The position numbers and the translations under genes are program-made. Below are positions 3,863-42,600 of a DNA stretch of 64,000 nucleotides, one piece after another. The notes below the pieces were generated by a model that saw nothing but the letters and a program-made list of their open reading frames with translations, was not told where the DNA came from and searched no databases. Source of the stretch: Candidatus Methanomethylicia archaeon (GTDB lineage Archaea > Thermoproteota > Methanomethylicia > Culexarchaeales > Culexarchaeaceae); NCBI GenBank assembly GCA_038727515.1, contig JAVYVS010000001.1:602946-666945 (forward strand). The letters run 5' to 3'. The stretch's first letter is position 1, and every line of letters starts with the position of its first letter.

Positions 3863-3910
3863 TGAAAAGCTTCAATAACAATAAATACAAAATATAAGTA
3901 TGGTGGAAAA

Positions 3911-4930: not shown

Positions 4931-6537
4931 TGGAAGTAGACATATTGATATTAAATGGGAGAATTATTGATGGTACAGGAGGACCATGGTATAAAGCAGA
5001 TATAGCAATTAAAGATGGTAAAATAATAGCCATAGGGAAAATAAGTGGTGTAGATGCAAAGAAAACAATAGATGCAAAAAATCTATTTGTAGCTCCAGGA
5101 TTCATAGATATGCATAGTCATTCAGATTACACGCTACTTGTAGATGGTAGAGCTATGAGTAAAATAATGCAGGGGGTAACAACAGAGGTTATAGGGAACT
5201 GTGGGAGTTCAGCGGCACCGGTAATAGGTGAAATGAGAGAAAATATTGAGAGAAGTAAGGAAATGTATGGTTTAAAAGTGGATTGGACAACTATGGGGGA
5301 ATATATGAATAAATTGGAGGAAGGAGGAGTATCTTTAAATGTCGTTCCATTAGTGGGATATTCAAACATTAGAATTGCAGTGTTAGGATATGATGCAAAA
5401 GAACCTACAGAAAGTGAAATGGATGAAATGAAGGAAATACTCATTAAAAGTTTAGATGATGGTGCATTCGGAATGTCAACTGGATTGAGATATGATCCAC
5501 AATCATTTGCGAAAACAGAGGAGATCATAGAATTAGCAAAGATAGTTTCAAAATACAATGGAGTATATGCAACACATATTAGAGATGAGGGAGATAGAGG
5601 ATCAATAATAGAAGCTGTGGAAGAAGCTATTAGAATAGGTAGAGAAGCCGAAGTCCTAGTTGAAATCTCACATTTAAAAATACTTGCAAAACCATTATGG
5701 AATAAATGCGATGAAATCCTAAATATGATTGAAACTGCCAGAGAAAAGGGGATTGAAGTAACTGCTGATCAATATCCATATGAAGCTAGTGGTACAAGTT
5801 TAATGGCTTGGATACCAAAATGGGCTAATGAGGGTGGAAGAGAAAAGTTATTGGAGAGATTGAGAAATCTCGAATTAAGAGAAAAAATAAAGTTGGAATT
5901 GTATAAGGCTATGGAATATCGTGGAGGATCTGAAAATGCAATAATAAGTAGATATGAATTAGATCGATCACTGGAAGGATTATCAATTAAACAAGTTGCA
6001 GAAAAATGGAATTTAAAAGACGATGAAACGGCAATAAAACTTGTAGAAAAAGCTTTAGAGGGAAAAACGGGTATTGGAATAATAAACTTTAATCAAAAGA
6101 GAGAGAACTTAATAAAGATATTTGTAAAACCGTGGGTTATGGTTGGATCAGATGGATATGCACTTTCACCAGCAGGAGTATTATCTAATGGTATACCGCA
6201 CCCAAGAAGTTATGGTACTTTTCCAAGAGCTATAGTAAAGTATGTTAAAGAAGAGAAGGTTTTAACATTAGAAGAGTGTATAAGGAAGATGACTTCATTA
6301 CCAGCTAACGTATTGGGGTTATGGAATAAAGGACTTATAAAAATAGGTTTAGATGCAGACATAGTAATATTCGATTTCGAAAAATTAAAGGATCAAGCAA
6401 CATACAATGAACCAGCAAAATACCCAATTGGAATAGAATATGTAATAGTGAATGGCGTAGTAACCGTAGAAAAAGGGATTCACACAGGAGAAAAAGCTGG
6501 AAGAGTTTTAAGGAGAAAAAGGGAATATAAATTATAA
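4930..6537 (+). CDS. N-acyl-D-amino-acid deacylase (D-aminoacylase)-like amidohydrolase
   Basis: 535 aa; amidohydrolase-3 N-terminus (ILNGRIIDGTGGPWYKADIAIKDGKIIAIG), metal-binding PGFIDMHSHSD motif as in D-aminoacylases. Confidence 0.65.
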   Translation: MEVDILILNGRIIDGTGGPWYKADIAIKDGKIIAIGKISGVDAKKTIDAKNLFVAPGFIDMHSHSDYTLLVDGRAMSKIMQGVTTEVIGNCGSSAAPVIGEMRENIERSKEMYGLKVDWTTMGEYMNKLEEGGVSLNVVPLVGYSNIRIAVLGYDAKEPTESEMDEMKEILIKSLDDGAFGMSTGLRYDPQSFAKTEEIIELAKIVSKYNGVYATHIRDEGDRGSIIEAVEEAIRIGREAEVLVEISHLKILAKPLWNKCDEILNMIETAREKGIEVTADQYPYEASGTSLMAWIPKWANEGGREKLLERLRNLELREKIKLELYKAMEYRGGSENAIISRYELDRSLEGLSIKQVAEKWNLKDDETAIKLVEKALEGKTGIGIINFNQKRENLIKIFVKPWVMVGSDGYALSPAGVLSNGIPHPRSYGTFPRAIVKYVKEEKVLTLEECIRKMTSLPANVLGLWNKGLIKIGLDADIVIFDFEKLKDQATYNEPAKYPIGIEYVIVNGVVTVEKGIHTGEKAGRVLRRKREYKL

Positions 6538-8500: not shown

Positions 8501-8553
8501 AATTTATCAAAATAATTATATATTATCCCGATTTATACCTTACACTCCCAAAT

Positions 8554-11535
8554 TTATTTATAGGAGGAGGACCATTCCATAGCGATATGTCTAATGAATT
8601 TTGCAACCATCATAGAAAGTTTTTCAGAAGAACTTCCAATACTCTTAACATACAATAGTATTTTACATTCACCATTATCATCAACATAAATTTCAAGAAT
8701 ATTCCTACTAGTATTCTTTGAAGCTGTACCTGAACCAATATCATATGTAAAAGTTAATTTATGTATATCTCTACCGGAAACCTTATCAACCCTTTTATCA
8801 ACAATTCTAATACTTTCTTCTATTGAAGTTGGATAACTTTTAATCTTATTAAAAACATAACTTAAAAACTCACCGATATATTTAGGATCCAATTTTAATG
8901 GAACTTCATATATATCAATTCTACCTTCAGGTGTATATTGAATATTACGCTTTATATTCCAAAGTTTAGAGGGTACAACTATCAATGCAGATCTAAAGAC
9001 AATTGAAGATCCAATCACTAAAGCGATTAATGAGAGAATTATGGAAAAGAATACCCATAGAAATGAAATCTTTGGGAAAACTGCAATTCTACTGAAAATA
9101 GACATAACTTTATATAAGAAGATTCCAAAGGCATATCCAATGGATCCAGCTGAGAAACCCATAATTATAGATTCATTAATGAAAATTCTAAATAATTGTG
9201 AGGGGGAAGCTCCAAGAGAAGTGATAACAATAGATTCATACTCTCTTTCACGAAGTGATGCGATGGCAGATATTGTAGCGTTTAGTATTATTAAGATCAT
9301 TGGTATAAATGCTTCAAACCCACTTGAAGAAAGATACTCAGCTAAAATCATATTTATACATTCATCACCAATTAAAACAGTTGAAAGTATATTTCCACCT
9401 CTGAGAGCAATAGTTTTACCAATTGAATAAATATCAGTATTAAGTTTATAATATACGTAAACTCTACTCACACTCAACTCAAAACTACTAATGTCAGACC
9501 AATGTATGAAAACAGTTTCACTTGGCTCACAAATTCTAGATTCATAAACATTTGGAACACCATCTTCACCCTTCATACTTAAAATCATCTTATATGGTAA
9601 AACATGTCTACCACTCAATTCACGCAAATTGTAAATAGCATTATCATCAAATAAACCACAAATCTTGAAAAATCTAAATGGATTTCCAACGGGAATGGGA
9701 ATTAAATCTCCAACTTTAAAACCAAGTTTTGAAGCTAGGGATATACTTATTGCAATTTCACCACTTTTACTTGGTAAACCTCCAGTAATAAATGTCGATG
9801 AGACAAGTTTCGCTACTGGATCTGAAGAATCGGAGAAACTTACAATGCCCATTATAGGTGTATTTTCACTAAATCTTGTATATGGAGTAACTCTAGCTTT
9901 AGATTCAGCTCTAAAAGTTTTATATTCAACTTGACCCAATAATTCAATCATATCAAGAACTGAAGAAGGGAGATTTTGTGCATATGGATTATTCTCAGCT
10001 TCACGAGGACTAAAACCAGATACAACATAATGATCTGGAACTCTAATTTCAATACTTAAACCATCAACACCATAATCATTTCTCCTATAATAGGTTAATA
10101 GATCTACTTCAAGAGAAAATGATGTTAAGGCTAGAGAACCAGCTGTAAAAACAATTAGAGAAATTAAAATTAAAATTGTACGAAGCTTTCTCCTCTTCAA
10201 ATTCCTCTTAGAAACAGAAAACAATTCGGCTGAATCAACAATAAATCTAAAACCAATAAATCCACGACTTAAAATCTCTAGTCCAGCTATAAGAATTAAA
10301 GGTGAAAATATTTTGGGGAGAAGGTTAATATCAAATTTTGGGAAGAGAGGATAACTAATAGACAAAATATATAATAAAGATGCATATGAAACTATAGAAA
10401 TAATAATTTTAAATATCAATCGCTCACTAATGAAATACCCGATAGAAACAGAACCAAAAATGAAAAATATCAATAGCAAGTTGATGGATAAAGAAGCTTC
10501 CATATACATCCCATCGATGGTAGAAGATAAACTTTTAAGCAAAACGCAGCAAGACCTTAATGTTGCAAATGAAGCTGAAGGATTATCCCTCTCCAAGTAA
10601 TCTTCAGCTTCATTTATCATTCTATTAATTCTATCAAGTTGAGAGAAAAGACTAGTAGTATAAAAACCATTCATCCTAGCGATATCCAATTTATTTAAAA
10701 CACTATTATACATAGATTTTACAATTCTAAGGGAATCGCTAAGAGAAACATCATAAATAGTAAAATACATAATATCATTTGAAGATAATACTTCAAAATC
10801 ATCAAATAATTTAACACTCAAATAAGATTCTCGAATACTTGGAGTTGTGGTATAAGTAGTTCTACCAAAAATTATAGTTGAAGGAATAGACATAGTCTCT
10901 TGAAAAACACCAGTAATGATTACATTTATTTTATAACCAGCTGGAACAGGAATAACATTACCTTTTAAACCCAACATAGAATATACATTTGATAAATCTT
11001 TAAAATCATATTTCAAAAGACAATTCAAATCTTGAGGCAAATCTTTAACTTCCACTTGATACATAACTCTACTTGCTGGATCACTATAATTAACATGCAT
11101 AAATCCACCAGAAAAAACTAATACTGCAGCTGGAAGCATTGAAAAATTCAAATTTAAACTTTCAATTGTTGAAAGTGGATTTATAGGTATAGATGTACAT
11201 ACTGGAACTCTATCTGGAAATCCACTATTGTAATCAATATGAAAAACGAATATCTTAATGAAGCCACCAGAAAGGTACTTATTGATGTTTAATTGGTAGA
11301 AGCCATTCTCATTTGTTTTCACAGACCCCAAAAAATCACTCCAAGAATAATATTCATGATAAACTATTACAATAGCATCGGAAAGCGCATGCGAATCCTC
11401 AAATTTAAAAACATAACCACTAATGGTGAAATTGGGATTTGACGAAAGTGAACAATCTATTTGCGAAAATAGAAATGAAAAAGTTAAAATCACAAATAAA
11501 GCTCCTTTAATTATGCATTGAATTTTAAAATTCAT
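8554..11535 (-). CDS. large FtsX/MacB-like permease family membrane protein with extracytoplasmic CarboxypepD_reg-like domain
   Basis: 993 aa; signal peptide; CarboxypepD_reg-like beta-sandwich (ISGYVFKFEDSHALSDAIVIV...TNENGFYQLN); two 4-TM blocks, the C-terminal one carrying an FtsX signature (ASLREREYESIVITSLGASPSQLFRIFINESIIMGFSAGSIGYAFG); no ABC ATPase gene adjacent. Confidence 0.5.
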   Translation of the reverse strand: MNFKIQCIIKGALFVILTFSFLFSQIDCSLSSNPNFTISGYVFKFEDSHALSDAIVIVYHEYYSWSDFLGSVKTNENGFYQLNINKYLSGGFIKIFVFHIDYNSGFPDRVPVCTSIPINPLSTIESLNLNFSMLPAAVLVFSGGFMHVNYSDPASRVMYQVEVKDLPQDLNCLLKYDFKDLSNVYSMLGLKGNVIPVPAGYKINVIITGVFQETMSIPSTIIFGRTTYTTTPSIRESYLSVKLFDDFEVLSSNDIMYFTIYDVSLSDSLRIVKSMYNSVLNKLDIARMNGFYTTSLFSQLDRINRMINEAEDYLERDNPSASFATLRSCCVLLKSLSSTIDGMYMEASLSINLLLIFFIFGSVSIGYFISERLIFKIIISIVSYASLLYILSISYPLFPKFDINLLPKIFSPLILIAGLEILSRGFIGFRFIVDSAELFSVSKRNLKRRKLRTILILISLIVFTAGSLALTSFSLEVDLLTYYRRNDYGVDGLSIEIRVPDHYVVSGFSPREAENNPYAQNLPSSVLDMIELLGQVEYKTFRAESKARVTPYTRFSENTPIMGIVSFSDSSDPVAKLVSSTFITGGLPSKSGEIAISISLASKLGFKVGDLIPIPVGNPFRFFKICGLFDDNAIYNLRELSGRHVLPYKMILSMKGEDGVPNVYESRICEPSETVFIHWSDISSFELSVSRVYVYYKLNTDIYSIGKTIALRGGNILSTVLIGDECINMILAEYLSSSGFEAFIPMILIILNATISAIASLREREYESIVITSLGASPSQLFRIFINESIIMGFSAGSIGYAFGIFLYKVMSIFSRIAVFPKISFLWVFFSIILSLIALVIGSSIVFRSALIVVPSKLWNIKRNIQYTPEGRIDIYEVPLKLDPKYIGEFLSYVFNKIKSYPTSIEESIRIVDKRVDKVSGRDIHKLTFTYDIGSGTASKNTSRNILEIYVDDNGECKILLYVKSIGSSSEKLSMMVAKFIRHIAMEWSSSYK

Positions 11536-14328: not shown

Positions 14329-16800
14329 TCAATGTAGAATGGCATTGAATAGAAATTTAAATGTTGCTGGAGTTTGACATCTACTATAAACTGGAAATCC
14401 AAATAAAACGATCTTTCCATAACCCTTAGGAATACAAGCTACGGCAGCAGCATCATAAAGATATTTTTCACCTAAAATCCAACCACTTAAAAGTGGATTC
14501 GTACTCGGATATTTAGCTACCACATACTCTTCTGGACATTTAAAAGCTGGACTATTTATAAACATGATTGCCGAATCAATATCCATACCAAAACCTATTG
14601 GATGCTTATTATTCACTATGACCCTCAAAATGGACCCTGGAATATAAAATTCCGTTGGTTTTAGATTCTCAAGTACATTTACAACTGGAATCCACATACG
14701 TTTAATGGGAAGCTCACAGCTCTCATCAATTGTTATAAGTTTACCACCATTCAAAACAAATTCATTTAAATTTTCAACACCCACATCACCAATACCACCA
14801 GCATATTCTGGAGGAACCTCTTCAACACTCCTACCATTAACAATATTATTGAGATTTTGACCAGCAATTATTATAACATCAAATCTAGAATTTAAATTGC
14901 CATTTCTAATTTCATTATTCCCAATACTCATATATGGTATATTAAACATTTCGAATAGAAACCTAGCCCAACCTTCATCAGCATTTGGAATCCAATTCCT
15001 ATATAAACCGATTCTAGGAATTTTGAGACTTATCATATTTACATTTGTTAAATTATCACAAGCATATAGTACCACTGGAAGACCTTTTAGGAAGCTGGGA
15101 AGTTTCTCCTTCAATTTATCATCATTTTCAAATACAAAAGCTCCTGGTGGAAGTTTAACATTAGAAATACTAATTTCATTGGGAATTCTATAAACTTTAA
15201 AATTGTTTAATAGAAGATTAATGGCAAGTTTATATGAAGCATTAGACTCTGGTGAAGCCAGTAGATATTTTGCATTTCTATCGCCAATTATAATTCCATC
15301 TGGATATTTAATCTCCTTTAACTCAACGCTTTTAACATTAAATTTACCATTAACTGTATAAACTTTAACATTCATCATTAATGGAAGTGTCCAAGCAGTT
15401 AAATCATATGGTCTTTTAGGCGGTTGTTCTGGGGATTCTCTTAAATCTGGGTATACTTGTACTTCCAGTAATGTTTTTGCATATCTACCATAAGGTTGAG
15501 CAAAATATATTATGAAGGATCCCTTTGGAAATTCTATTCCATCAGCAATGAAAGATTCTTCAGCCACGTTGATTTTAACCAATCCACGATGTAAAATATC
15601 TAAAAGCCAGTACAAATTATATAAATCCTTTTGATTTGGAGGGATTATAAAGGCGAATGGCCCCCCTTCAGGTTTTAAAGCACGTTTAAATATTTCTATG
15701 GTATTTGCAATCCAAAATCTCCTATACTTAGCAGCATTTCTAAGACATGCAATAACAGCGGCAAGTTCATAATCAATAATGTCTCTTAACCTCCAAATAC
15801 CACCACGCCATGGATATGGATTATTCCATCTTTGTTTAGATGGATCTAAACCAATAACAGGTCTTAAATCTTGAGGCTTTATTTCAATGGGAGTAGCAAT
15901 TTTAACGCTTGCAGCTTCAGAAAGTATTCTTATACCACCATGATAATGCTGATAAGCTCTAGCAGGCGTCCAAGCATCGTATATAGCATAGCAAGCTACA
16001 CCCTTAAATCCTCTACCAATAAGTTCATTAGCCATTGAAGAACCCATAAATACTATTTCTTGTTGAAGTATGGGATCTACATTAGGATCTATTGGGTCAA
16101 GATATGGTGGAAGCCAAAGTCTAGGTCCATATGGACCCATCTGATGTAAATCATATACTATTTGTGGATGCCAACGATTATGAACTTTTTCAACGACAAG
16201 TCTAGTTTCAATTAGATTCAACATAAACCAATCTCTATTATTATCATGACCAGCATATTTATGGTAAAGCCATGGTGGAGCTGAACCTTCATATTTAGTA
16301 CCTAAAGTCTTATTATACCAATTTACAACCATTACATGACCATCTGGATTAAGTGATGGAATTAAGAGTAATATTACATTATCGAGGATTTCTTTAAATT
16401 CATCAGAATCTTCTGTTGCAAGTTTATAGAGAAGTTCTATACTCATCTGTGATGCAGCAATCTCGGTGGAATGAATACTACAAGTAACAAGTACAATTGT
16501 TTTACCTTCATCTATAAGTTTTGAAATTTCATTTTCACTAAGACCTTCAGGATTATGAAGCTTTTCCTGTATACTCCTATAATAATCCAATTTCTTCAAA
16601 TTTTCAGATGAAGAAATTATAGCTAGAATCATATCATTGCCTTCAGTGGTTTTACCCAAGAATTCCACTATAACTCTATCTGAGCGTTCTCCAACAATTT
16701 TAAAATACTCTAAAATTTGATTCCAGTTGGCAAGTTTCCTATCTTCTCCAACTTTAAAACCAAGAAATTCTTCAGGGGATGGAATACCCTTTAAACCCAT
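14329..16800 (-). CDS. M14 family zinc carboxypeptidase-like protein (cytosolic, large)
   Basis: M14 motifs HSTEIAAS (HxxE), SLNPDGH, NNRDW; the annotated ORF start at 16878 overlaps tRNA-Gln; trimmed to the internal ATG (MGLKGIPSPEEF) at 16800. Confidence 0.6.
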   Translation of the reverse strand: MGLKGIPSPEEFLGFKVGEDRKLANWNQILEYFKIVGERSDRVIVEFLGKTTEGNDMILAIISSSENLKKLDYYRSIQEKLHNPEGLSENEISKLIDEGKTIVLVTCSIHSTEIAASQMSIELLYKLATEDSDEFKEILDNVILLLIPSLNPDGHVMVVNWYNKTLGTKYEGSAPPWLYHKYAGHDNNRDWFMLNLIETRLVVEKVHNRWHPQIVYDLHQMGPYGPRLWLPPYLDPIDPNVDPILQQEIVFMGSSMANELIGRGFKGVACYAIYDAWTPARAYQHYHGGIRILSEAASVKIATPIEIKPQDLRPVIGLDPSKQRWNNPYPWRGGIWRLRDIIDYELAAVIACLRNAAKYRRFWIANTIEIFKRALKPEGGPFAFIIPPNQKDLYNLYWLLDILHRGLVKINVAEESFIADGIEFPKGSFIIYFAQPYGRYAKTLLEVQVYPDLRESPEQPPKRPYDLTAWTLPLMMNVKVYTVNGKFNVKSVELKEIKYPDGIIIGDRNAKYLLASPESNASYKLAINLLLNNFKVYRIPNEISISNVKLPPGAFVFENDDKLKEKLPSFLKGLPVVLYACDNLTNVNMISLKIPRIGLYRNWIPNADEGWARFLFEMFNIPYMSIGNNEIRNGNLNSRFDVIIIAGQNLNNIVNGRSVEEVPPEYAGGIGDVGVENLNEFVLNGGKLITIDESCELPIKRMWIPVVNVLENLKPTEFYIPGSILRVIVNNKHPIGFGMDIDSAIMFINSPAFKCPEEYVVAKYPSTNPLLSGWILGEKYLYDAAAVACIPKGYGKIVLFGFPVYSRCQTPATFKFLFNAILH

Positions 16801-16836
16801 GAAATTAACTATGTATAGAACATTGTTTAAATTTAT

Positions 16837-16912
16837 TGGTAGCCGGGGGGAGATTCGAACTCCCGTCGACGGGGCCAAAGCCCGCCATGCTTGGCCGCTA
16901 CACCACCCGGCT
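16837..16912 (-). tRNA. tRNA-Gln (anticodon UUG), CCA encoded
   Basis: Reverse complement reads AGCCGGGTGGTGTAGCGGCCAAGCATGGCGGGCTTTGGCCCCGTCGACGGGAGTTCGAATCTCCCCCCGGCTACCA: 7-bp acceptor stem AGCCGGG/CCCGGCT, T-arm GGGAG-TTCGAAT-CTCCC, anticodon stem GCGGG/CCCGT with loop CTTTGGC (U33, anticodon TTG, G37); resembles crenarchaeal tRNA-Gln. Confidence 0.85.
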
Positions 16913-31017: not shown

Positions 31018-31323
31018 TCACAATTTAAGAAAATCAATAATACCCTTATAACCAGTAAATGTTAGGGTTAATGCACCAACTATACTCAATGCTAAGGCAA
31101 ATAGTTTTGCTAGATCTTGTATAAAAATACTTGACATAGCAGATGGCTCCTTACTTAGATATGCACCTGCAGCAAACATTTCATCACCAATAATAACATA
31201 ATCACAAACCACAGCAAAGAAGGGTATCTGATATACCCTAGCGGTACCAGCAACTTGTATTGAGCCAACCCTATAGAATGTTTCAGCAAACATCATTGAT
31301 TCAGCCCAGAATGGTCCAACCAT
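31018..31323 (-). CDS. hypothetical membrane protein (operon member 2; possibly C-terminal part of interrupted gene)
   Basis: 101 aa; in the same reading frame as 31384..31833, separated only by one TAA (31381..31383) and 20 sense codons. Confidence 0.3.
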   Translation of the reverse strand: MVGPFWAESMMFAETFYRVGSIQVAGTARVYQIPFFAVVCDYVIIGDEMFAAGAYLSKEPSAMSSIFIQDLAKLFALALSIVGALTLTFTGYKGIIDFLKL

Positions 31324-31383: not shown

Positions 31384-31833
31384 TTAACTACCAGATAAAT
31401 ATCTTATATCATGCTCAGGTTTTGCACGATCCAATTTACCCTCACTTGTATAAGCCTGTTTATATAGTTCTGTAGCAACACCAAGAACAGTGGGGTCGCC
31501 AACGCTGCATATAATCTCTACATCGTATTTAGCGCATAATCTTGCAAGTTCAGCGAAAACAGCTAAACCTGCAACCACCTGTGGAGAAGTAGCTCCCGTT
31601 AAACCAGCATATCCGGGAGTAAAATGCACTGGTTTACCCATTTCAGCAGCTCTACCCACAGCTTCCTCTAAAGCTTCTAATCCAGCAATCTTCCTCCATT
31701 TTAAAGTCCATCCACGCTTTAAAGCATTCATAACAAGAATTGCTCCAACCCACATGAGTATAAGCAATGCTAAATCTAGATATCTACCAGCAACTATCTG
31801 TTCAACATTTAGAATTGCACCAGCAGAATTCAA
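31384..31833 (-). CDS. hypothetical membrane protein (operon member 1; possibly N-terminal part of interrupted gene)
   Basis: 149 aa; TM helix then motif FTPGYAGLTGATSPQVVAGLAVFAEL; locally higher GC than surroundings. Confidence 0.3.
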   Translation of the reverse strand: MNSAGAILNVEQIVAGRYLDLALLILMWVGAILVMNALKRGWTLKWRKIAGLEALEEAVGRAAEMGKPVHFTPGYAGLTGATSPQVVAGLAVFAELARLCAKYDVEIICSVGDPTVLGVATELYKQAYTSEGKLDRAKPEHDIRYLSGS

Positions 31834-34773: not shown

Positions 34774-35025
34774 TCAAGTTAATGGGAGCCCTTTACAGTG
34801 AACCTTACCAGAAACTCTCCTAATAAAATTTTTACATGTAAAACATATTAGAAATGGAACTTCACCACCACATATAGGACATGAAATCACTTCTTTACGC
34901 ATATTTGTAAGCATTTTACCTCCAACAACACCCTTAATCTCATCTAAAATTTCTTTGGGGACCTTTTGAACTTTATCCACCTTCTTAATTTCAACTACAT
35001 ACTTAACTTCACTCAAATAATACAC
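34774..35025 (-). CDS. small zinc-ribbon protein, unknown function
   Basis: 83 aa; CPICGG...CFTCK...C Cys motif; directly upstream of dys. Confidence 0.3.
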   Translation of the reverse strand: MYYLSEVKYVVEIKKVDKVQKVPKEILDEIKGVVGGKMLTNMRKEVISCPICGGEVPFLICFTCKNFIRRVSGKVHCKGLPLT

Positions 35026-35114: not shown

Positions 35115-35471
35115 GTGAGTAGTAGAAGTACACCAATAGATTTAGCATCAAAAGATTATCAAGCAGCAAAGAAATATGCAATACAAGTATATTTAGAAGG
35201 GGTAGATGTAGCTATAAAAGTTGCACAACAATCAAAGGAGAAATATGGACTTAGTGAAAAGGAATACATAACCATATTGGATAGCATACTAGACAAAACC
35301 ATAAGCCCACTAAAATATCTAATACAAGAATATGAACATTTACCAGAAGACATAAAAGACTTATTCAGAACAGAAGAAGAAAGAGATATTGAAAGGAGAA
35401 TTTCAGAATTAGTTTCAAAAAGATTATCAAAGATAATTGAAGAAGCAGAAAAATTTGGAAGACAAAAATGA
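35115..35471 (+). CDS. hypothetical small charged helical protein
   Basis: 118 aa, no TM, Lys/Glu-rich; precedes HerA-like ATPase. Confidence 0.3.
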   Translation: MSSRSTPIDLASKDYQAAKKYAIQVYLEGVDVAIKVAQQSKEKYGLSEKEYITILDSILDKTISPLKYLIQEYEHLPEDIKDLFRTEEERDIERRISELVSKRLSKIIEEAEKFGRQK

Positions 35472-35493
35472 TTATGTAAATTGTTTGAGCTAA

Positions 35494-37077
35494 GTGAAGA
35501 ACATTTCAAGTAGGAAATTAATAGTATGTAAATGGAAGAAGATTAGGGGGAGAATAAAAGGTAAAAATGATTGGACAATGGAAATAGCTCCAATATTAGC
35601 CATAATAACAATACTACTTCTAAAGAAGAGTTACTTCATTGATATAATCATGAAGAACATTGAAATAATCATACTAGTAGCAATGACCATAACAATTTCA
35701 ACGATTATCACTGTTAAATTGAAAAACAAAAATAAAGTATTTATTGGGTTAAATGGATTAAGACCAGTCTACCTAGATCTATCTGGAAATAAACATATAG
35801 TGATATTTGGAATGACTGGAAGTGGAAAAACAGAAACTGCAAAAAGAATCCTAAAAAGTGTAAATAAAAAGAAGTTAATAATAGATTGGTCTGGTGAATA
35901 TACCGATTATAAGTCTATTGAACCATCAGAATTAAAAATAGATTTGAAGAAAGAAGATATAATAGATGCCATTATAAGTACATTCCAACTAACAATACCA
36001 CAACAAACATTACTAATAGAAGCAAGTAAAAGAGGGGGAGGATTAAAGGAAATAATAGAAGAAATAAAAAAGATAAACTATCAAAGCGATTCAGGAAGAG
36101 AGGTAAAAGATGCATTAATCAGAAAACTATCCATACTAGAAAAATTAAACTTATTTAATGGAAATAAAAATTTAGCAGAAGTAGAAGCGATAAATTTATC
36201 GAAAATAACATTTGAAGCAAAAAAGCTTGTTACAAACATAATATTGAAATCATTTTATAATAATCCAGAACCAAGAATCCTAGTAATAGAAGAAGCACAA
36301 AACATCATGCCAAGACAAAATCAAGAAACAATAAATGTAACAGAACTGATAATAAATGAAATTAGGAAATATGGTGTAAACGTAATATTAATAGCTCAAA
36401 CTCCAAGCCAAATATCAAACGTATATAGAAATGCGGAATATGTTATAATCCATAGATTAAGATTAACACATCATGAAATCCAAGAACTAGGACTAAAAAT
36501 GGAGGAAGCAGAAAAAATATCAAAATTAAATTTAGGAGAATGTATAATTATAAGTGGAGGGGAGAAGAGAGAAGTCAGGTTAATAGGGGTAAAGGGGATT
36601 ATTAAAAATATAAGCAAAATTAAATATGAAAATACAGTGAAAGATGAAATAGAGCGCATTAATATAAGAAATTTAGAGGAAGATTATGAGATAATCAAAA
36701 GAAAAGTAATAGAACTTGAAGAAAATTATAAACAATTAATTGAAAAATATAGAAGAATAGAGAAGGTAAAAATAGCTGAAAACCCAATAAGCCTCGGGGA
36801 ATTTATAGATAGAACTGAAGATAAATTGGTAAAGATATCAACATCAATAAGTATTTTAAAAGATAAAATGGAATCAATAGAAGAAAAGACCTCTAAAAAC
36901 AATTTGGACAAACAAAATTTTGAAAGTATAATTGGAAAAATAGAAAAACAAACCATTACAAATTCAAATAGAATAATAGAATTGGAGCGAAGGGTAGATG
37001 ACATCTTGGATAAAATGAAGAGATTTGAATATTGGGTTAAGGAGGTAATATCACAAATTGAAGATAGAATACGATAA
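35494..37077 (+). CDS. membrane-anchored HerA/DUF87-type P-loop ATPase with C-terminal coiled coil
   Basis: 527 aa; two N-terminal TM helices (likely start MEIAPILAIITILLL near 35578); Walker A IVIFGMTGSGKTE; Walker B / DEAH-like ILVIEEAQNIMP; about 170-aa C-terminal heptad-rich tail. Confidence 0.55.
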   Translation: MKNISSRKLIVCKWKKIRGRIKGKNDWTMEIAPILAIITILLLKKSYFIDIIMKNIEIIILVAMTITISTIITVKLKNKNKVFIGLNGLRPVYLDLSGNKHIVIFGMTGSGKTETAKRILKSVNKKKLIIDWSGEYTDYKSIEPSELKIDLKKEDIIDAIISTFQLTIPQQTLLIEASKRGGGLKEIIEEIKKINYQSDSGREVKDALIRKLSILEKLNLFNGNKNLAEVEAINLSKITFEAKKLVTNIILKSFYNNPEPRILVIEEAQNIMPRQNQETINVTELIINEIRKYGVNVILIAQTPSQISNVYRNAEYVIIHRLRLTHHEIQELGLKMEEAEKISKLNLGECIIISGGEKREVRLIGVKGIIKNISKIKYENTVKDEIERINIRNLEEDYEIIKRKVIELEENYKQLIEKYRRIEKVKIAENPISLGEFIDRTEDKLVKISTSISILKDKMESIEEKTSKNNLDKQNFESIIGKIEKQTITNSNRIIELERRVDDILDKMKRFEYWVKEVISQIEDRIR

Positions 37078-38878
37078 ATACTTTCCCTATCGAGAATACA
37101 GAAATGGACAAATAGAATTGATAGAAAAAGTTATGGATACAATATTAAATGGTGAAAACATTATTTTAAGAGCCCCATCAGGATTTGGAAAAACCATAAC
37201 AGTACTTACAGCCATCATACCCATCTTAGAAAGATTAGAGGATAATAGAGTTATATGGCTTTGTAGAACACATAGGGAAAATAATAGGGTTATAGAAGAA
37301 ATAAAGAAGATTAAAAATATACCCAATACAATAAATGCTATAACTTTAGAAGCTAGAACAAAGATGTGTATAAAAAGTTTAGATAAAGATTTAAAGAAAG
37401 ATCATGAAGCATTCTCAATATTGTGTTCAGAATTAAGAAGACAAGGGAAATGTGAATATTATGATAAGAAAAAGATAGAAGGTATAGAGATACCACAGGT
37501 ATGTGGTGTAAAAGAACTTATAGAAATATGTGAGAAAAATAATGTATGCCCTTATGAAGTTGCAAAAAGAGAAGCATCCATACGTAGAATACTAATAGCA
37601 AATTATAATTACATGTTAATACCACAAATAATGAAAACCTTAAATCTAAAATTAAAAAACTCAATACTAATAGTAGATGAAGCACATAATCTACCAGAAA
37701 TAGCAGTAAATATGGAAATGGAAAAGATAACAATTAGAGGATTAGAAGAAACTATCATAGAAATGGAGAGAGAAGATTTAATTCAAGAAATAGAGATAAT
37801 TGAACAATTAATGAAAATCATAGTTAAAGAAAGCAATGTGGAAGTAGTAATAGAAAAAGATCGTCTAAAAAGAGCCATTGAAGAAGTATGTGGAAATTTA
37901 AGTGATATAGCATTGAAATTAATTACTGAGGGAGATAGGATAAGACATAGACTTGCAAAAGAAGGTAAGAAACCAATTTCACATATACATCACCTAGGAA
38001 AATTTTTGAAAAAATTTCAAAGCATAGTGGAAAAAGAAGAATATGCAGTATTTTCTGGAAATAGTGAAATGTGGATAGAATGCTTCGATCCATCAAATAT
38101 CCTAAGGAAAATATATGGCACATTTAATGCTACAATAAGTATGTCAGGAACCATAGATGAAAAATATGGAGAATTAATAGGAATACAAAAATATAGATAT
38201 GTAAAAACAACATACACAAATAGCAAAAATATACTACCAATAATTGTTGAAAATGTATCCACAGATTACGAAGAAAGAAGTTTGGAGATGTATCAAAAAA
38301 TAAATGAGTACATATTCATATTATCGGAGAATACTAAGATGGGTATAGGGGTATTCACAGCATCATATAAAGTTTTAGAGGGGCTAATCGAGGCAGGCAT
38401 AAAAAAATTAATGAAACCAATATACATTGAAGAACAAAATGAAGATCCAAGAACAAGCGAATGGAAAATAGAAGCATATAAGGAAAAAGCACGAAATGAG
38501 GGAGCCATATACCTTGGAGTTTGTGGTGGAAGAGCAAGTGAAGGAGAAGATTTCCCAGGAAGAGAAATGGATATAGTATTACTTGTTGGAATACCATTCC
38601 CAGAACCTTCAATAAGAATAGATAAGAAAAATGAATACTATGAAAAAAGATTTGGAGAAAAAGGGAAATTATACAGTTATATTTTACCAGCAATATGGAA
38701 GGCATCACAAGCAGCTGGAAGAGCTATAAGAGGACATGAAGATAAAGGGATAGTGGTATACTTAGATAGAAGGTATAAAAGATATATTGACTTACTCCCA
38801 GAATGGTTAAAACCGAGAAAAATTATAAAAGAACCTGAACAATTAAAAGAGGAAGTAATATTTTTCTTCACACCATAA
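37058..38878 (+). CDS. XPD/Rad3-like (DinG family) Fe-S helicase
   Basis: 606 aa; FPYREYRNGQ N-terminus, motif I ILRAPSGFGKT, Cys-containing Fe-S insertion, DEAH box ILIVDEAHNLPE, C-terminal GRAIRGHEDKGIVVYLDRRY. Confidence 0.8.
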   Translation: MKIEYDKYFPYREYRNGQIELIEKVMDTILNGENIILRAPSGFGKTITVLTAIIPILERLEDNRVIWLCRTHRENNRVIEEIKKIKNIPNTINAITLEARTKMCIKSLDKDLKKDHEAFSILCSELRRQGKCEYYDKKKIEGIEIPQVCGVKELIEICEKNNVCPYEVAKREASIRRILIANYNYMLIPQIMKTLNLKLKNSILIVDEAHNLPEIAVNMEMEKITIRGLEETIIEMEREDLIQEIEIIEQLMKIIVKESNVEVVIEKDRLKRAIEEVCGNLSDIALKLITEGDRIRHRLAKEGKKPISHIHHLGKFLKKFQSIVEKEEYAVFSGNSEMWIECFDPSNILRKIYGTFNATISMSGTIDEKYGELIGIQKYRYVKTTYTNSKNILPIIVENVSTDYEERSLEMYQKINEYIFILSENTKMGIGVFTASYKVLEGLIEAGIKKLMKPIYIEEQNEDPRTSEWKIEAYKEKARNEGAIYLGVCGGRASEGEDFPGREMDIVLLVGIPFPEPSIRIDKKNEYYEKRFGEKGKLYSYILPAIWKASQAAGRAIRGHEDKGIVVYLDRRYKRYIDLLPEWLKPRKIIKEPEQLKEEVIFFFTP

Positions 38879-38920: not shown

Positions 38921-39289
38921 TTGAGCATGGAAGATTATATTTTAGAAATGATCACAGCATCTCAAGAAAAATTTGAAATAAAACTGTTAAGGGCAATAGC
39001 CCCATTAACAACATTCGAAATTATAAAGAAATTACCATTAAAAGCAACATTACTAGTTTATAAGGGGAAAATATACATACCAATAGAAATCAATATCAAA
39101 GGGGAAAAAACTTTGAATAAAGCTTTAAAAGGGGATGTAACATACTCCAGTATAAATAAAGCAATAATAATACATTTAGAAGAAGAATCCGTAAAATCAG
39201 AAACAAAGATTGGAGTAGCTTTAAACATTGAAAATCTAGGTAAGATTAAAAGTGGAACAAGCATATTATTAAGGAGGAAGGAATATTGA
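38921..39289 (+). CDS. hypothetical protein (small beta-rich)
   Basis: 122 aa; no confident family; 4-nt overlap with nrdG-like gene. Confidence 0.3.
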   Translation: MSMEDYILEMITASQEKFEIKLLRAIAPLTTFEIIKKLPLKATLLVYKGKIYIPIEINIKGEKTLNKALKGDVTYSSINKAIIIHLEEESVKSETKIGVALNIENLGKIKSGTSILLRRKEY

Positions 39290-40095
39290 GGGTATATGTA
39301 GCTGGAATAAGAGATTTAAGTTTAATAGATTATCCAAGACATCCATGTATAGTAATATGGTTTCAAGGATGCAACTTTAGATGCCAATACTGCTATAACT
39401 ATGAGTTATGGGAAATGAGAAATGAAAATTTGTTAATGATAGATGAAATAGTTAGGAGGATAATTGAAGTAAAAGATATTGTAGAAGCATGTAAGATAAC
39501 TGGTGGAGAACCATCAATACAATCTGAAGCTCTAATGAGTATTGGAGAAGAATGTAAAAAGATAAAATTAAAATTTGGAATTGATACAAATGGTACGAAT
39601 CCAAGAATAATAGAAAAGTTAATTGAAGGGGAAATAGTAGATCATATAGCAATAGATTTGAAAGCACCATTAAATGTTAATGATTACACAAAAATAGTTG
39701 GAATTAAAATAGAACAAAAAGACCTAGAAAATATAAAGAGAACAATAAAATTAGCTTTTGAAAGCAATTTAGAAAGTGTTGAAATAAGAATCCCAATAAT
39801 TAGGAGTCTAAATAATAATCCAGATAAAATGTTGAATTTGAAAAATGATCTATTAGAGTTGGGATACGTGAAAGCTATTGAAGATGGAAAAAATGTAAGT
39901 ATAGAGGTATTAGAGGTTATACATGAATTAGCTGCAAATAAAGAACTTAGATTACAAAAGAATTTAACAATCAATGAAATAGTATATTTAAGTGAAGCTA
40001 TAGGTTTACCAAAGATATATATTAGACATAGAGATTTAGGTTTAAGGATGAGCTTAAGTCATGCAAAGGAAAACATTAGGAAAATTAAATCTTAA
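39286..40095 (+). CDS. nrdG: anaerobic ribonucleoside-triphosphate reductase activating protein-like radical SAM enzyme (NrdG)
   Basis: 269 aa; radical-SAM motif FQGCNFRCQYCYN (C-x3-C-x2-C) near N-terminus; convergent and overlapping with nrdD; C-terminal extension beyond typical NrdG length. Confidence 0.7.
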   Translation: MRVYVAGIRDLSLIDYPRHPCIVIWFQGCNFRCQYCYNYELWEMRNENLLMIDEIVRRIIEVKDIVEACKITGGEPSIQSEALMSIGEECKKIKLKFGIDTNGTNPRIIEKLIEGEIVDHIAIDLKAPLNVNDYTKIVGIKIEQKDLENIKRTIKLAFESNLESVEIRIPIIRSLNNNPDKMLNLKNDLLELGYVKAIEDGKNVSIEVLEVIHELAANKELRLQKNLTINEIVYLSEAIGLPKIYIRHRDLGLRMSLSHAKENIRKIKS

Positions 40096-42343
40096 TTCTA
40101 TACCTATCTTTCAACTCCCTCCTCTTAGCCATATTCCATCCACTAACATCTTGATAGTATCCAGTAACTCTACTCCACCATTTCACATTATTAGAACCAC
40201 AATTTGGACATTTATCATTTAACAATGGAGAAACAGTTGCACAATCACTACATATAGTTAAATCCTTAGTATAACTGAAATATCCTATTTGAGTTTCCGT
40301 AGCAATTTTCTTCGTGAGTTTAAATAGAGCTTCAGGATCTGGATATGCTTCACCAAGCCATATATGGAATATGTTTCCACCAGATAATAATGGGAAGAAT
40401 TTATGTTCAATATCTATTTTTCTAGCTAATGGGATGTTTGCACCAACATATACATGTGTACCATTGCTATAGTATACTGGGACATCCCTTTCATCGCTCT
40501 CAAGCATCTTCTTAGCGGTTTCCAAATCCCCTTTAACAACTTTACTAGCTGCATCTCTATATTCATCTGATAATAGATCTGCAACTGCAAGCCTCTGAGC
40601 GCAACTTTCAGCTGGAGTTCTAGCTAAAGCAATTTTATAATTAAATTTAGATTCCAATTCATCTCTATATTTACGCATAGCTAAAATTACTTTTACAAGT
40701 AATTTCACAGCTTCATTAGATTCATGCAATTGATAACCAGTATGCCATTGAGCCATTTCATTACCGCCAACTAAACCTATAACGAAAACCAAATTATTGA
40801 AATCCACTGCAGGAGGACCTCTCTTACCAGTTCTAGGATCTAATGGTCTTTGAGTTGCAAAGGGTAGACGTCCATTCTTAATCATAAGGTTCATCCACTT
40901 TAATTTAACTTTAAATACATCTAATGATAAATCCATGAGTCTATATATTTCTTCTAAGAGTTTATCATCATCACCCTTAGCCTTATATGCAACTCTAGGA
41001 AGATTTAAACTAACAACTTGCCATGCACCCATGCTAAAATGTTTACCATCAATAAAGTAAACTTTATCATTAAATGAGGAATCACTTTCAGGGGTTTCAG
41101 TGAAAGAGTATGCACAACATTGGTAACATGATACACCCTTACCATATCCTCTATATGCTGGAAGAGCATTATCAAAGTATGGAGAACCGAATTTTGAAAC
41201 AACTTTATGGACGAGCATCCATTCATCATAGTAATCATCTTTAAGAGCTTCAGGAGTTATGTAAGTTTCAAGTTTTGGGAAATTGAATGGTTTACCCCAA
41301 AAATCACCTTTAAATGCAACTTCATATATAGCTCTAAAGAATAATCTAGCTTCTTCTTCAAAACTTCCATAGGTATCCTCACTAACAACACCTCTATAAA
41401 CAACAGGTTTATCACGCCAAATCTCGGGGACTGTTGGTGAAAGTTGAATATTGGAAAAGACTAATTGACCTCCTCTAGCAACATAACATTGAGTTAATTC
41501 ATAAAACATCATTTGAGCCAATTGTTTGATTTCTTCATATGATAATCCTTCCATAAATGGTGCAAGAAAAACATTATAGTTATAGAAACCCTGTCCACCT
41601 GAGAAATTAGTTTGTGCAGCTGCAAGTATCTTAACTGAATGTAAAATAGCTACTTCAGGATGTTTAGCAGGACCAGCAACACTAGTTTTAAATCCAGTTC
41701 CATCGGGCATTAAACCATAATATAAGAAGTATCGTAAATCATGATCTTGACAGAATGGTCTAGTTCCAAAATACTCTAAATCATGAATATGAATATCACC
41801 CTTCAAATGAGCATCAGCAATATGTATGGGTAGGAGCAAGAGATATTGTTCTTTAGAAAGCTTATCAGCCTTCTTCTTATGGGAAGTTTCAGGATTAGGC
41901 TGTAAATTAGCGTTTTCCTTAGCTTCAAAACCTAATCCAATATCGATGAGATAAGCATCATATACAGGTGCTCCAACTCTAGTTAAAACATTCCTATATA
42001 CTATGTATACAGGCTTATTATTAGACCATTCAAGCAAAATATTATTTACAACTTCTCTAATTAATGGAGCACTCACGAAAAATGCCTTCATACTCTTAAT
42101 TCTACGTTCAGCTTCTAAAGCTATAGCCTCAGCTTCCTCCCTACTTATAGGAGGAATACCAAAGAATTCTTCTGCCAATTGAGTTTCCTTTAAAAGCTGT
42201 TTTACAATTTTAGATCTATCCCAAGGCTCAAAATATCCACTACTAGTTCGAACAAGTATTAATTCATCATCCTTACCCTTAAGATTAACAGTAGATTTAT
42301 CGATCCAACCATTATATCCATTAAGCCAATCAACCAAGCTCAA
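40085..42343 (-). CDS. nrdD: anaerobic ribonucleoside-triphosphate reductase (class III, NrdD)
   Basis: 752 aa; ATP-cone-like N-terminus, C-terminal Zn ribbon CSDCATV...CPNCGS and glycyl radical motif RVTGYY. Confidence 0.9.
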   Translation of the reverse strand: MSLVDWLNGYNGWIDKSTVNLKGKDDELILVRTSSGYFEPWDRSKIVKQLLKETQLAEEFFGIPPISREEAEAIALEAERRIKSMKAFFVSAPLIREVVNNILLEWSNNKPVYIVYRNVLTRVGAPVYDAYLIDIGLGFEAKENANLQPNPETSHKKKADKLSKEQYLLLLPIHIADAHLKGDIHIHDLEYFGTRPFCQDHDLRYFLYYGLMPDGTGFKTSVAGPAKHPEVAILHSVKILAAAQTNFSGGQGFYNYNVFLAPFMEGLSYEEIKQLAQMMFYELTQCYVARGGQLVFSNIQLSPTVPEIWRDKPVVYRGVVSEDTYGSFEEEARLFFRAIYEVAFKGDFWGKPFNFPKLETYITPEALKDDYYDEWMLVHKVVSKFGSPYFDNALPAYRGYGKGVSCYQCCAYSFTETPESDSSFNDKVYFIDGKHFSMGAWQVVSLNLPRVAYKAKGDDDKLLEEIYRLMDLSLDVFKVKLKWMNLMIKNGRLPFATQRPLDPRTGKRGPPAVDFNNLVFVIGLVGGNEMAQWHTGYQLHESNEAVKLLVKVILAMRKYRDELESKFNYKIALARTPAESCAQRLAVADLLSDEYRDAASKVVKGDLETAKKMLESDERDVPVYYSNGTHVYVGANIPLARKIDIEHKFFPLLSGGNIFHIWLGEAYPDPEALFKLTKKIATETQIGYFSYTKDLTICSDCATVSPLLNDKCPNCGSNNVKWWSRVTGYYQDVSGWNMAKRRELKDRYRIKI

Positions 42344-42600
42344 CTCCTCCCTAAAATCTTCAAAATAAATTCACTTCTCAATTTAGAATCTTCAAAAAGG
42401 TCATTTACAAAGAAGTATCTTCCATCAACCTCAAGTATTGGAACTGAAGTTACAAAAACATTATTCATTATGAGTTCAGTCATAACATTAATATTTGATA
42501 TATCCATCTCTAAATATTTAACTCCAATACTACTTAAAAAGTTCTTTAAAATCATACATAAAGGACAGTTTGGCGATGTAAAAATCTTAACAACAGACAT
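42340..42600 (-). CDS. glutaredoxin-like / NrdH-type redoxin
   Basis: 86 aa; thioredoxin fold with CPLC active site at residues 12-15; 4-nt overlap with nrdD. Confidence 0.65.
   Translation of the reverse strand: MSVVKIFTSPNCPLCMILKNFLSSIGVKYLEMDISNINVMTELIMNNVFVTSVPILEVDGRYFFVNDLFEDSKLRSEFILKILGRS

Follow-up and report, generated by a model that had tools for sequence, protein, structure and literature searches.

A CedD-like membrane-anchored ATPase coupled to an XPD helicase in Methanomethylicia: a candidate module for DNA translocation

Three co-directional genes found in the genome of a Candidatus Methanomethylicia archaeon raise the question of what a membrane-anchored ATPase does next to an XPD-family helicase whose gene overlaps its own. 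The ORF list of the window, which is the whole 64-kb stretch of DNA analysed here, places a 118-aa helical protein (p118) first, followed by a 527-aa ATPase and a 606-aa XPD helicase, with the features as follows.

35115..35471, + strand: p118, a 118-aa all-helical charged protein, first gene of the co-directional run
35494..37077, + strand: CedD-like membrane-anchored ATPase, 527 aa, HerA/VirB4 branch, ending in a helical tail
35578..35724, + strand: N-terminal membrane anchor, residues ~29-77 (hydropathy, AF2 helices and alignment of N-termini)
35734..36582, + strand: P-loop ATPase core, residues ~81-363 (Walker A, Walker B and HerA-type motifs)
36619..37074, + strand: helical tail rich in heptads, residues ~376-526, three segments
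37041..37045, + strand: GGAGG Shine-Dalgarno of XPD, within the ATPase gene at its 3′ end (sequence reading)
37058..38878, + strand: XPD/Rad3-family Fe-S SF2 helicase, 606 aa (TIGR00604, Pfam and PDB matches, invariant motifs)

The ORF coordinates reproduce exactly the gene positions given in a preliminary description of this DNA, as well as its 20-nt overlap between the ATPase stop and the XPD start (37058-37077). The XPD gene starts with TTG, which is preceded by the GGAGG at 37041-37045, and the position of this GGAGG within the 3′ end of the ATPase gene couples the two genes translationally. Along with p118 and XPD, the neighbours of the ATPase in the window include a cyclophilin-like gene and NrdG, a setting of housekeeping genes.

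Within the FtsK-HerA superfamily, the ATPase falls in the HerA/VirB4 branch, in agreement with its assignment at first sight. It carries Walker A and B as well as ExRKxG and QxPS, and its RecA-like fold matches that of HerA/VirB4 structures. Walker A (GMTGSGKTE, residues 106-114, 35809-35835) and Walker B (ILVIEEAQN, residues 262-270, 36277-36303) are invariant across 20 homologs, and the core also conserves E289-R291-K292-G294 and Q302-P304-S305, which are common to HerA proteins. The catalytic motifs are intact and the enzyme looks active as judged from its sequence, being presumably ring-forming and probably a hexamer. The fold matches included HerA/VirB4, TrwB, Cagbeta, TcpA and FtsK. The best curated family for the core was CedD (NF053655; 104.5 bits, 5.5e-30), a match that covers the ATPase domain only (profile positions 222-520 of 527) and lies below the equivalog cutoff of 600 bits. 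CedB, named earlier as an example of such an ATPase, is not the nearest relative, as its model NF041017 gave no match to the window ATPase at E ≤ 0.1 and matched some distant relatives weakly. The window ATPase is thus not an orthologue of CedD or CedB, and it sits in a broad clade whose sole characterised member is CedD. The FtsK/SpoIIIE model PF01580 reached 20.2 bits against a cutoff of 24 and over residues 90-122 only, the canonical HerA models NF040937 and NF040819 gave no match to the window ATPase, and the protein does not show the full set of VirD4/TrwB coupling-protein features, which comprises N-terminal TM helices, an NBD with an inserted all-alpha domain and a match across the TrwB domain.

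Two hydrophobic segments were observed in the hydropathy of the N-terminus (residues ~31-44, which is short, and ~56-75), where AF2 helices cover residues 27-77. The two TM helices described earlier are therefore plausible in the window ATPase but are not a constant of the family, whose members have zero, one or two TM-like segments. A basic segment (residues 1-28), which may or may not be translated, precedes the anchor; the start is ambiguous, with GTG at 35494 having no Shine-Dalgarno and most homologs starting at the equivalent of M29 (35578), and nevertheless the basic extension is conserved in P0004 and L008. The core begins ~5-10 residues past the TM region, with no N-domain between them in either the alignment or the AF2 model. 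The C-terminal tail is heptad-rich, as had been noted (z = 6.4, with none of 300 shuffles reaching the observed value), but its length is ~150 aa (376-527) and not 170 aa. AF2 renders it as three long helices, 379-423, 431-468 and 473-526, and two motifs are conserved in it, NPIxLGEFIxRT (~residues 426-437) and FExWVKE (~residues 511-517).

The downstream gene is a bona fide XPD/Rad3 Fe-S helicase, in line with its first description. It scored 282.3 bits with TIGR00604 (cutoff 246.95), exceeded the Pfam thresholds of DEAD_2, HBB and Helicase_C_2, and matched the Thermoplasma XPD in PDB at 4e-46. Walker A (39-46), DEAH (207-210), the Fe-S cysteines C104, C123, C132 and C164, and motif VI (Q551-R558) were all located, and Walker A, DExH, the four cysteines and motif VI are invariant across eight ATPase-linked XPDs, so that with its motifs intact the helicase looks active. 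A CRISPR or defence reading of the helicase was rejected, since there are no repeats and no cas genes and the XPD threshold is passed, whereas the Csf4 score is 23.9 against 400.

The ATPase family is rare and occurs only in Methanomethylicia, Culexarchaeales and Nezhaarchaeales, plus sister-branch loci with a related pair. Wherever a family locus reaches far enough, XPD was located directly downstream of the ATPase, and this holds for three divergent lineages: Methanomethylicia and Culexarchaeales (L003-L012, L020 and L063), Nezhaarchaeales (L001, L014-L019 and L021) and the sister branch (L057, L059-L062 and L064). Checked in this way by co-occurrence, the link with XPD proposed in the preliminary description is supported as conserved and, to the extent that gene order can tell, as functional. 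The junction ranges from a 22-nt overlap to a 10-nt gap (−22 to +10) in most loci, and in Nezhaarchaeales XPD is kept beside the ATPase though every other neighbour differs from that in the window. The two genes are an obligate, translationally coupled module. The position of the ATPase locus is stable and syntenic amid housekeeping genes across the whole class, and the gene behaves as a core-genome, vertically inherited, single-copy-like gene. Known plasmids and viruses lack the family, and a mobile-element origin was rejected, as archaeal plasmids and viruses yielded no relatives and only ~24%-identity bacterial DUF87 matches were found. The literature yielded no reported XPD-HerA or pilus-HerA linkage in archaea, and a search for work on pili in Methanomethylicia gave nothing useful.

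The sister branch places the pair in an informative setting. In L057, L060, L062 and L064, as well as in the partial locus L056, genes for a T2SSE, two T2SSF-like proteins, an ~80-aa protein, the ATPase and XPD follow one another on one strand, an array that corresponds to a TadA-like ATPase, two TadB/C-like proteins and a Flp-like pilin, with the ATPase-XPD pair last. The T2SSE matches are above threshold (48.8 and 45.1 bits, against 24.9), the T2SSF matches range from 16.8 to 23.7 and so lie below the Pfam threshold of 25.2, and the ~80-aa proteins carry A(S/G)PL(V/I)EEG and a hydrophobic TM helix with no curated family match, so that "pilin" refers to the motif only. No prepilin peptidase was identified for the pilus operons of L057, L060, L062 and L064. 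These pilus-embedded loci belong to one branch only, and their ATPases in L057, L060 and L062 have no TM anchor. A more distant CedD-like ATPase (L022 and L023) comes after a pilus ATPase of the same clade as the pilus ATPases of those loci. Several Nezhaarchaeales harbor a FlaI/BasE-like ATPase, an UpsF-like platform protein and a DNA ligase 1-4 kb upstream; this neighbourhood counts as weak evidence, because it could reflect synteny at the level of the order and because L018 and L021 lack it. Upstream of the pilus operons in L062, L060 and L064 lies a TFB paralog, which was considered as a TFB3-like regulator and dropped, since it is part of a NusA-KH/RpoG-like/Alba housekeeping cluster, and the TFB candidate of L022 had no Pfam match. 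In the window itself, neither tblastn, with three divergent queries for T2SSE and several for T2SSF/TadBC, nor Pfam analysis of ~45 ORFs detected any pilus or Ced genes, and no Ted, CedA-like channel or DNA-receptor genes were found within its 64 kb.

As the pair stands at the end of a Tad-like pilus operon in the sister lineage, its likeliest role is in pilus-associated DNA uptake or cell-to-cell exchange. The best reading of the pair remains the DNA-handling membrane machine first suggested, strengthened by its embedding in Tad-like type IV pilus operons of the sister branch, and from genomic context we consider the chances about even that it is a membrane DNA-translocation module for such uptake or exchange. 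The ATPase ring would engage DNA at the cytoplasmic membrane and pump or gate it, while XPD, a 5′-3′ helicase possibly docked via the conserved tail of the ATPase, would unwind the duplex so that single strands are handled. We infer DNA as the substrate of the ATPase, a physical ATPase-XPD interaction, the direction of transport by the pair and pilus involvement in the window's organism, where the pair would have become physically unlinked from the pilus genes. A more specific version, which we put forward tentatively and hold to be possible but somewhat doubtful, is that the pair is the cytoplasmic motor of an unrecognised archaeal DNA-uptake or exchange apparatus, in which a Tad-like pilus would capture DNA or make contact with a partner cell, the CedD-like ring would pump or gate the DNA, and XPD would be the missing helicase that turns duplex into single strands. 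Ced/Ted has no known helicase or relaxase (PMC9905601), and no DNA transporter, including a ComEC homolog, is established for archaeal natural transformation (PMC10133366).

The comparison with known systems places the window ATPase closest to CedD. CedD, a DNA-import ATPase of Sulfolobales that was recognised only in 2025, is SiRe_1715/Saci_0667 (NCBIfam NF053655), the second ATPase of crenarchaeal Ced DNA import, and is considered here together with TedD of Thermoproteales. Both proteins fall in the same HerA/VirB4-branch clade and have an N-terminal membrane anchor, and a weak TrwB/T4CP-type P-loop signature of Pfam occurs in both (for CedD, PMC11823120). CedD works in DNA import with Ups pili, and relatives of the window ATPase family are tied to type IV pilus genes. 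However, CedD consists of a TM domain, a VirB4-NTD-like domain and a C-terminal ATPase (PMC11868833), and this order is not matched by the window ATPase, which lacks the ~200-aa N-domain and adds the heptad-rich tail. In addition, the window family is obligately coupled to XPD whereas no such coupling is reported for cedD/tedD, and Ced/Ted pili are VirB2-like whereas the pilus genes of the relatives encode a Tad/type IV filament, with no CedA, CedA1 or CedB seen near the window ATPase. The VirD4/TrwB coupling proteins likewise have N-terminal TM helices followed directly by an FtsK-HerA-type NTPase, share the proposed role of handing DNA to a membrane machine, and are represented by TrwB, together with Cagbeta and TcpA, among the fold matches.

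Bacterial competence combines a type IV pilus (ComG/Pil) with the ComEC channel and the ComFA helicase/translocase. The sister-branch operons suggest a similar combination, in which a type IV filament is joined by a membrane-associated motor and by an SF2 helicase that acts on DNA as it enters, but the motor parts are not homologous, ComEC/ComEA are lacking, XPD stands in place of the DEAD-box ComFA, and bacterial competence has nothing equivalent to the HerA/VirB4-type ring ATPase. HerA-NurA, Sir2-HerA, DUF4297-HerA and DptH/DndH share the ATPase fold and the ExRKxG and QxPS motifs, and in HerA-NurA and anti-phage HerA a HerA-type ring is likewise partnered with a DNA-processing enzyme; the window ATPase differs in having no HAS barrel and no nuclease or Sir2 partner, and in being membrane-anchored and core-genome rather than part of a defence island.

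That last likeness underlies the reading that survives best beside DNA uptake, in which the ATPase is a membrane-tethered repair accessory that loads, regulates or localises a general repair helicase, as in HerA-NurA, with no transmembrane DNA transport. The XPD has every motif of a canonical Rad3/XPD and may be the only XPD of the organism; if so, the ATPase could work in repair and not in transport. In the Culexmicrobium-type loci L003, L004 and L063 the gene immediately upstream of the ATPase encodes a UDG, a DNA ligase gene lies 1-2 kb upstream in Nezhaarchaeales, and these nearby genes fit a repair role equally well; the window is also without pilus genes, and HerA-type ATPases do pair with DNA-processing enzymes (PMC9905601). 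However, the closest family is CedD and not the repair HerA, whose curated models score far lower on the family or are absent, the HAS-barrel N-domain is lacking, no NurA, Mre11 or Rad50 neighbours were found beside the ATPase, it is not easy to see why excision repair would need a membrane anchor, and the presence of the pair within five pilus operons would be unexplained. A repair role is considered unlikely.

A chromosome-clearing or segregation motor, pumping DNA at the division site like FtsK while XPD resolves DNA structures, appears improbable. In its favour, the N-terminal TM helices with an FtsK-HerA motor resemble FtsK/SpoIIIE, the gene behaves as core-genome, vertical and single-copy-like, and FtsK and TcpA are among the fold matches. 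Defence against viruses or plasmids, with a HerA/DptH-like ATPase and a DinG/XPD-like helicase acting on invading DNA, is very improbable: the pair is inherited vertically, among syntenic housekeeping genes whose arrangement is stable across the whole class, whereas defence islands vary. PADLOC returned domain-level matches only, with no Sir2, DUF4297, other mad genes or cas genes near the window ATPase; no CRISPR-like repeats, cas genes or defence genes were found within the 64-kb window, no nuclease effector accompanies the pair, the family is missing from mobile DNA, and the helicase sides with XPD/Rad3 over Csf4. A VirB4-like pilus-assembly or protein-secretion ATPase with no DNA role, beside which XPD merely hitch-hikes in the operon, is hardly credible, as the pilus operons already carry their own assembly ATPase (T2SSE) and the coupling to XPD, with its overlapping stop and start codons, is kept in every lineage whether or not the pilus genes are gone, which speaks for a function that the ATPase shares with a DNA helicase.

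DNA passage across archaeal membranes is largely unexplained, and the ATPase-XPD pair offers a candidate motor for archaeal DNA uptake. The cellular role of archaeal XPD has long been unclear, with no TFIIH context as in the eukaryotic orthologue, and if DNA uptake is the true role, it would give an archaeal XPD a transport-linked function; if instead the pair serves repair, the module still defines a new HerA-type partner for XPD. The two proteins are soluble or anchorable, have predicted activities and are thus biochemically tractable. Methanomethylicia reportedly has cultured members as of 2024, which makes expression and imaging tests conceivable.

The preliminary description also placed a small charged protein just upstream of the ATPase and grouped it with the pair. 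p118 is lineage-specific and only a candidate member of the module, since it is confined to Methanomethylicia, is found neither in the Nezhaarchaeal nor in the pilus-embedded loci, and in some loci has the UDG gene between itself and the ATPase. It stands as a real, conserved gene, encoding an all-helical protein with a mean column identity of 77%.

Inspection of the open reading frames revealed three genes on the plus strand, with coordinates that agree with those of the preliminary description:

35115-35471, plus strand, ORF of p118, a charged helical protein of 118 aa
35494-37077, plus strand, ORF of the ATPase, 527 aa
37058-38878, plus strand, ORF of the XPD helicase, 606 aa, with a TTG start

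The 20-nt overlap of the ATPase and XPD genes, from the XPD TTG to the stop of the ATPase, was likewise recovered, and the sequence reads GGAGG at 37041-37045, 12 nt upstream of that TTG. The p118 stop lies 22 nt from the annotated start of the ATPase. The start codon of the ATPase is uncertain, as the annotated GTG at 35494 has no Shine-Dalgarno sequence and the alternative is Met29 (35578); most homologs start at the equivalent of Met29, and two relatives conserve the 28-residue basic segment.

The two P-loop ATPase motifs claimed in the preliminary description, GMTGSGKTE (residues 106-114) and ILVIEEAQN (262-270), are present and were found to be invariant in an alignment of 20 homologs, with two hydrophobic segments (~31-44 and ~56-75) located N-terminal to the ATPase core. 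In an AlphaFold2 model built from 20 sequences (pLDDT 72, core ~80), residues 27-77 are helical, 81-363 form the alpha/beta core, and three long helices cover 379-423, 431-468 and 473-526. The periodicity of the heptad-rich tail described earlier was confirmed (z = 6.4, equalled by none of 300 shuffles), while its length is ~150 residues rather than 170, and a structure search showed that the tail resembles antiparallel three-helix bundles.

In Pfam, the ATPase matches DUF87 (HerA central domain), with TrwB, FtsK and others matching the P-loop only. The best curated NCBIfam model, by a wide margin, was the CedD 'DNA-translocating ATPase' (5.5e-30), which aligned over profile positions 222-520 only and scored 104 bits, below its 600-bit cutoff, and the next models (anti-phage HerA, EccC, TraD) reached 1e-7 or worse. 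CedB, which had been put forward for comparison, gave no match with its NCBIfam model, CedD being the closest. The suggested HerA/VirB4 placement held in the structure search, where Foldseek retrieved HerA and the VirB4 CTD at ~1e-8. The curated-model and structure matches therefore place the ATPase in a CedD-like clade of the HerA/VirB4 branch, and its sequence is that of a predicted membrane ATPase of this clade with intact catalytic motifs. For the next-nearest relatives, with or without an N-domain of ~200 aa, the best curated family was CedD in every case. CedD was reported in 2025 from Saccharolobus islandicus and Sulfolobus acidocaldarius as a protein composed of TM, VirB4-NTD-like and ATPase regions; it is indispensable for DNA import, and a role akin to that of a VirD4 coupling protein has been proposed for it (PMC11868833, PMC11823120). 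Whereas CedD has the VirB4-NTD-like domain, the window ATPase has no N-domain and carries an added helical tail. CedD itself was rejected as the identity of the ATPase on account of the low score, the absent N-domain and the extra tail.

The downstream gene was rightly named an XPD, scoring 282 bits against TIGR00604 (cutoff 247), with the Pfam domains DEAD_2, HBB and Helicase_C_2 all above threshold and an E-value of 4e-46 between Thermoplasma XPD and the window XPD; its sequence predicts an intact Fe-S helicase. Linkage was analyzed in the encoding contigs together with 14 GTDB species loci and metagenome loci, and in all family members on contigs that continue past the ATPase, XPD was observed directly after it. 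The preliminary description had raised the case of a housekeeping ATPase unlinked to XPD; no informative locus was found without XPD, so the ATPase is not such a protein. In Nezhaarchaeales the pair is kept and all its other neighbours differ from those in the window, with a DNA ligase and a nitroreductase upstream and a transglutaminase-like gene downstream. XPD likewise follows the ATPase in a sister branch (loci L057, L059-L062 and L064). The junctions range from an overlap of 22 nt to a gap of 10 nt in nearly all loci. Identity between lineages is only 25-33% for the linked XPDs and 35-42% for the ATPase cores, and all linked XPDs retain Walker A, DExH, the four Fe-S cysteines and motif VI. 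The ATPase-XPD pairing is obligate and translationally coupled.

Two loci have unusual arrangements. At L059 (8001-11352, a Logan contig), the ATPase stops after the core (326 aa), the coiled-coil tail is a separate ORF of 139 aa and the XPD gene is split over three ORFs, which reflects either module decay or assembly errors. On a metagenome contig of 64% GC and unknown origin (L073), a 308-aa DUF87 ATPase (2544-3470) has a 504-aa XPD-like Fe-S helicase (3534-5048) directly behind it, and a second DUF87 ATPase of 670 aa (7269-9281) lies a few genes on, among ORFs without a family match; the first two genes may represent an independent case of the ATPase-XPD pairing, far more divergent and perhaps carried by a mobile element.

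Close relatives of the ATPase form only 21 clusters among the 5.8 billion proteins searched, labelled Methanomethylicia, Methanomethylicota, Nezhaarchaeota or 'archaeon YNP-WB-040'. With the ATPase core as query, an exhaustive profile search across 1.84 billion representatives yielded four at ~470 bits and five at 228-304 bits (the sister branch, which also carries the NCBI label Nezhaarchaeales/Nezhaarchaeota), with the remainder at ≤135 bits. No relatives of the ATPase family were found in the plasmids and viruses searched. The organisms that carry the pair are mostly uncultured.

The evidence that most shapes our interpretation is the setting of the sister-branch pair, which is embedded in putative type IV filament operons. 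At L057, L060, L062, L064 and the truncated L056, the pair terminates a co-directional, tightly spaced array in the order T2SSE-family ATPase, two polytopic proteins, ~80-aa protein, ATPase and XPD. The T2SSE ATPases match Pfam above threshold (5e-13 and 7e-12), the two polytopic proteins (~250-280 aa) have weak T2SSF matches below threshold, and the ~80-aa protein, which has no match among curated families, has the N-terminus ...A(S/G)PL(V/I)EEG(I/M)LL followed by a hydrophobic helix. Read as a motif, this N-terminus resembles that of a Flp/Epd-type prepilin carrying Glu at +5. The helical tail is kept in all these pilus-embedded ATPases, with TM helices absent in L057, L060 and L062 and two present in L056 and L064. 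At L059, the small protein, ATPase and XPD occur together and the TadABC genes are absent. Pilus genes were also observed at L022 (400-7736) and L023, where a 552-aa CedD-like ATPase (best family CedD, 6e-60) with an N-domain, without TM helices and without XPD comes after a PilB/TadA-like ATPase and two membrane proteins, with divergently oriented pilin-like ORFs nearby. The pilus ATPase there belongs to the same clade as that of the sister-branch arrays (38-43% identity), and these loci represent another subfamily of the CedD clade that is linked to this pilus-ATPase clade.

In several Nezhaarchaeales, the 1-4 kb upstream of the pair hold a FlaI/BasE-like ATPase, different from the array T2SSE, a platform protein of 601 aa (best curated match UpsF, 7e-66, below cutoff) and an ATP-dependent DNA ligase (L001 1586-6735; also L014, L015, L017 and L019). 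This neighbourhood is absent from L018 and L021 and may be order-level synteny only; it recalls the Sulfolobales partnership of Ups and Ced. A literature search found no description of the ATPase-XPD pair within pilus operons, and HerA-type or XPD genes are unmentioned for archaeal type IV pilus loci in Makarova et al. 2016 (PMC4858521).

A gene for a TFB paralog (TFIIB repeat, 5e-7) is located at L062 (2724-3671), L060 and L064, two genes upstream of the pilus-ATPase-XPD operon and inside a NusA-KH/RpoG-like/Alba cluster, and is probably housekeeping. In Sulfolobales, TFB3 controls the Ups and Ced genes.

The upstream p118, which the preliminary description called helical, proved to be a real, strongly conserved gene with a helical-bundle model, and is probably the first cistron of the run, preceded by an A/T-rich region and a GGAGAG Shine-Dalgarno sequence. 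It was found in Methanomethylicia only (eight clusters), is missing from the Nezhaarchaeal and pilus-embedded loci, and had no informative relative by structure or sequence comparison; p118 is not counted in the ATPase-XPD module. Methanomethylicia of the Culexmicrobium type have a UDG-superfamily gene (Pfam 9e-39) between the p118 orthologue and the ATPase, giving the order p118-UDG-ATPase-XPD:

L003, 7335-7946, UDG-superfamily gene
L004, 7036-7662, UDG-superfamily gene
L063, 7112-7708, UDG-superfamily gene

The insertion is absent from the window, and the context of these three loci is repair-flavoured. The main rival explanation, a membrane-tethered repair role of XPD with the HerA-like protein as accessory ATPase, would agree with the presence of UDG and ligase genes nearby; we consider it rather improbable. 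FtsK-like segregation is less consistent with the data and very improbable, and the same holds, slightly more strongly, for a defence module; a DNA-independent pilus ATPase also fits less well and is the least credible of all.

Our preferred reading, to which the genomic context lends about an even chance, is that the pair serves membrane DNA translocation in pilus-associated uptake or exchange. DNA and ring behaviour is known for the HerA, VirB4, VirD4 and FtsK relatives, and XPD is a 5'-3' ssDNA translocase-helicase. An ATPase ring at the membrane would bind and move or gate DNA, as has been proposed for CedD (PMC11868833, PMC11823120). XPD would unwind the DNA under handling, the conserved motifs NPIxLGEFIxRT and FExWVKE of the ATPase tail would mediate partner binding, and the process would be pilus-associated DNA uptake or exchange. 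The superfamilies of both parts were already known, the nearest system being Ced/CedD; the ATPase architecture, the invariable XPD partnership and the placement of the pair inside putative type IV pilus operons are new. The pair matters because no DNA transporter is known for archaeal natural transformation (PMC10133366) and no helicase for Ced/Ted import (PMC9905601), and because what archaeal XPD does in the cell is, to our knowledge, unsettled.

The window's 64 kb are ordinary chromosome, with synteny conserved across Methanomethylicia, and no pilus, Ced, cas or defence genes and no CRISPR-like repeats were found within it. It encodes peptidases, ThiC, ThyX, TFB, FrhB, phosphoglycerate mutase, S25e, CysRS, deoxyhypusine synthase, NrdG/NrdD/glutaredoxin, an aminotransferase, Alba, PadR, tRNA-intron endonuclease, a class II aminoacyl-tRNA synthetase, arginase, TIP49, Nramp, PyrF, a transglutaminase-like protein and a DNA ligase. 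Other features are:

16840-16912, minus strand, tRNA, the sole Rfam match in the window
31018-31323, minus strand, DUF6754 ORF, 101 aa, profile positions 161-249
31384-31833, minus strand, DUF6754 ORF, 149 aa, profile positions 10-136
34774-35025, minus strand, 83-aa protein with CxxC...CxxxxxxxxxxxC cysteines, divergent from p118
38921-42600, cyclophilin-like protein (PF04126) directly downstream of XPD, then NrdG activase with a 4-nt overlap
38921-42600, anaerobic ribonucleotide reductase NrdD and glutaredoxin, convergent to the cyclophilin-like and NrdG genes

The 83-aa protein, which has no family match, occupies the same position in all Methanomethylicia loci (47-65% identity), and the order of cyclophilin-like gene and NrdG is kept in most of them. 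The DUF6754 membrane protein is split in the window and is a single gene of 259-270 aa in syntenic relatives. The split may come from a frameshift or a sequencing error, or the gene may be a pseudogene. The tRNA overlaps the mechanically extended TTG start of an 849-aa M14-peptidase ORF (14329-16878), and the true start of the peptidase must therefore be further downstream.
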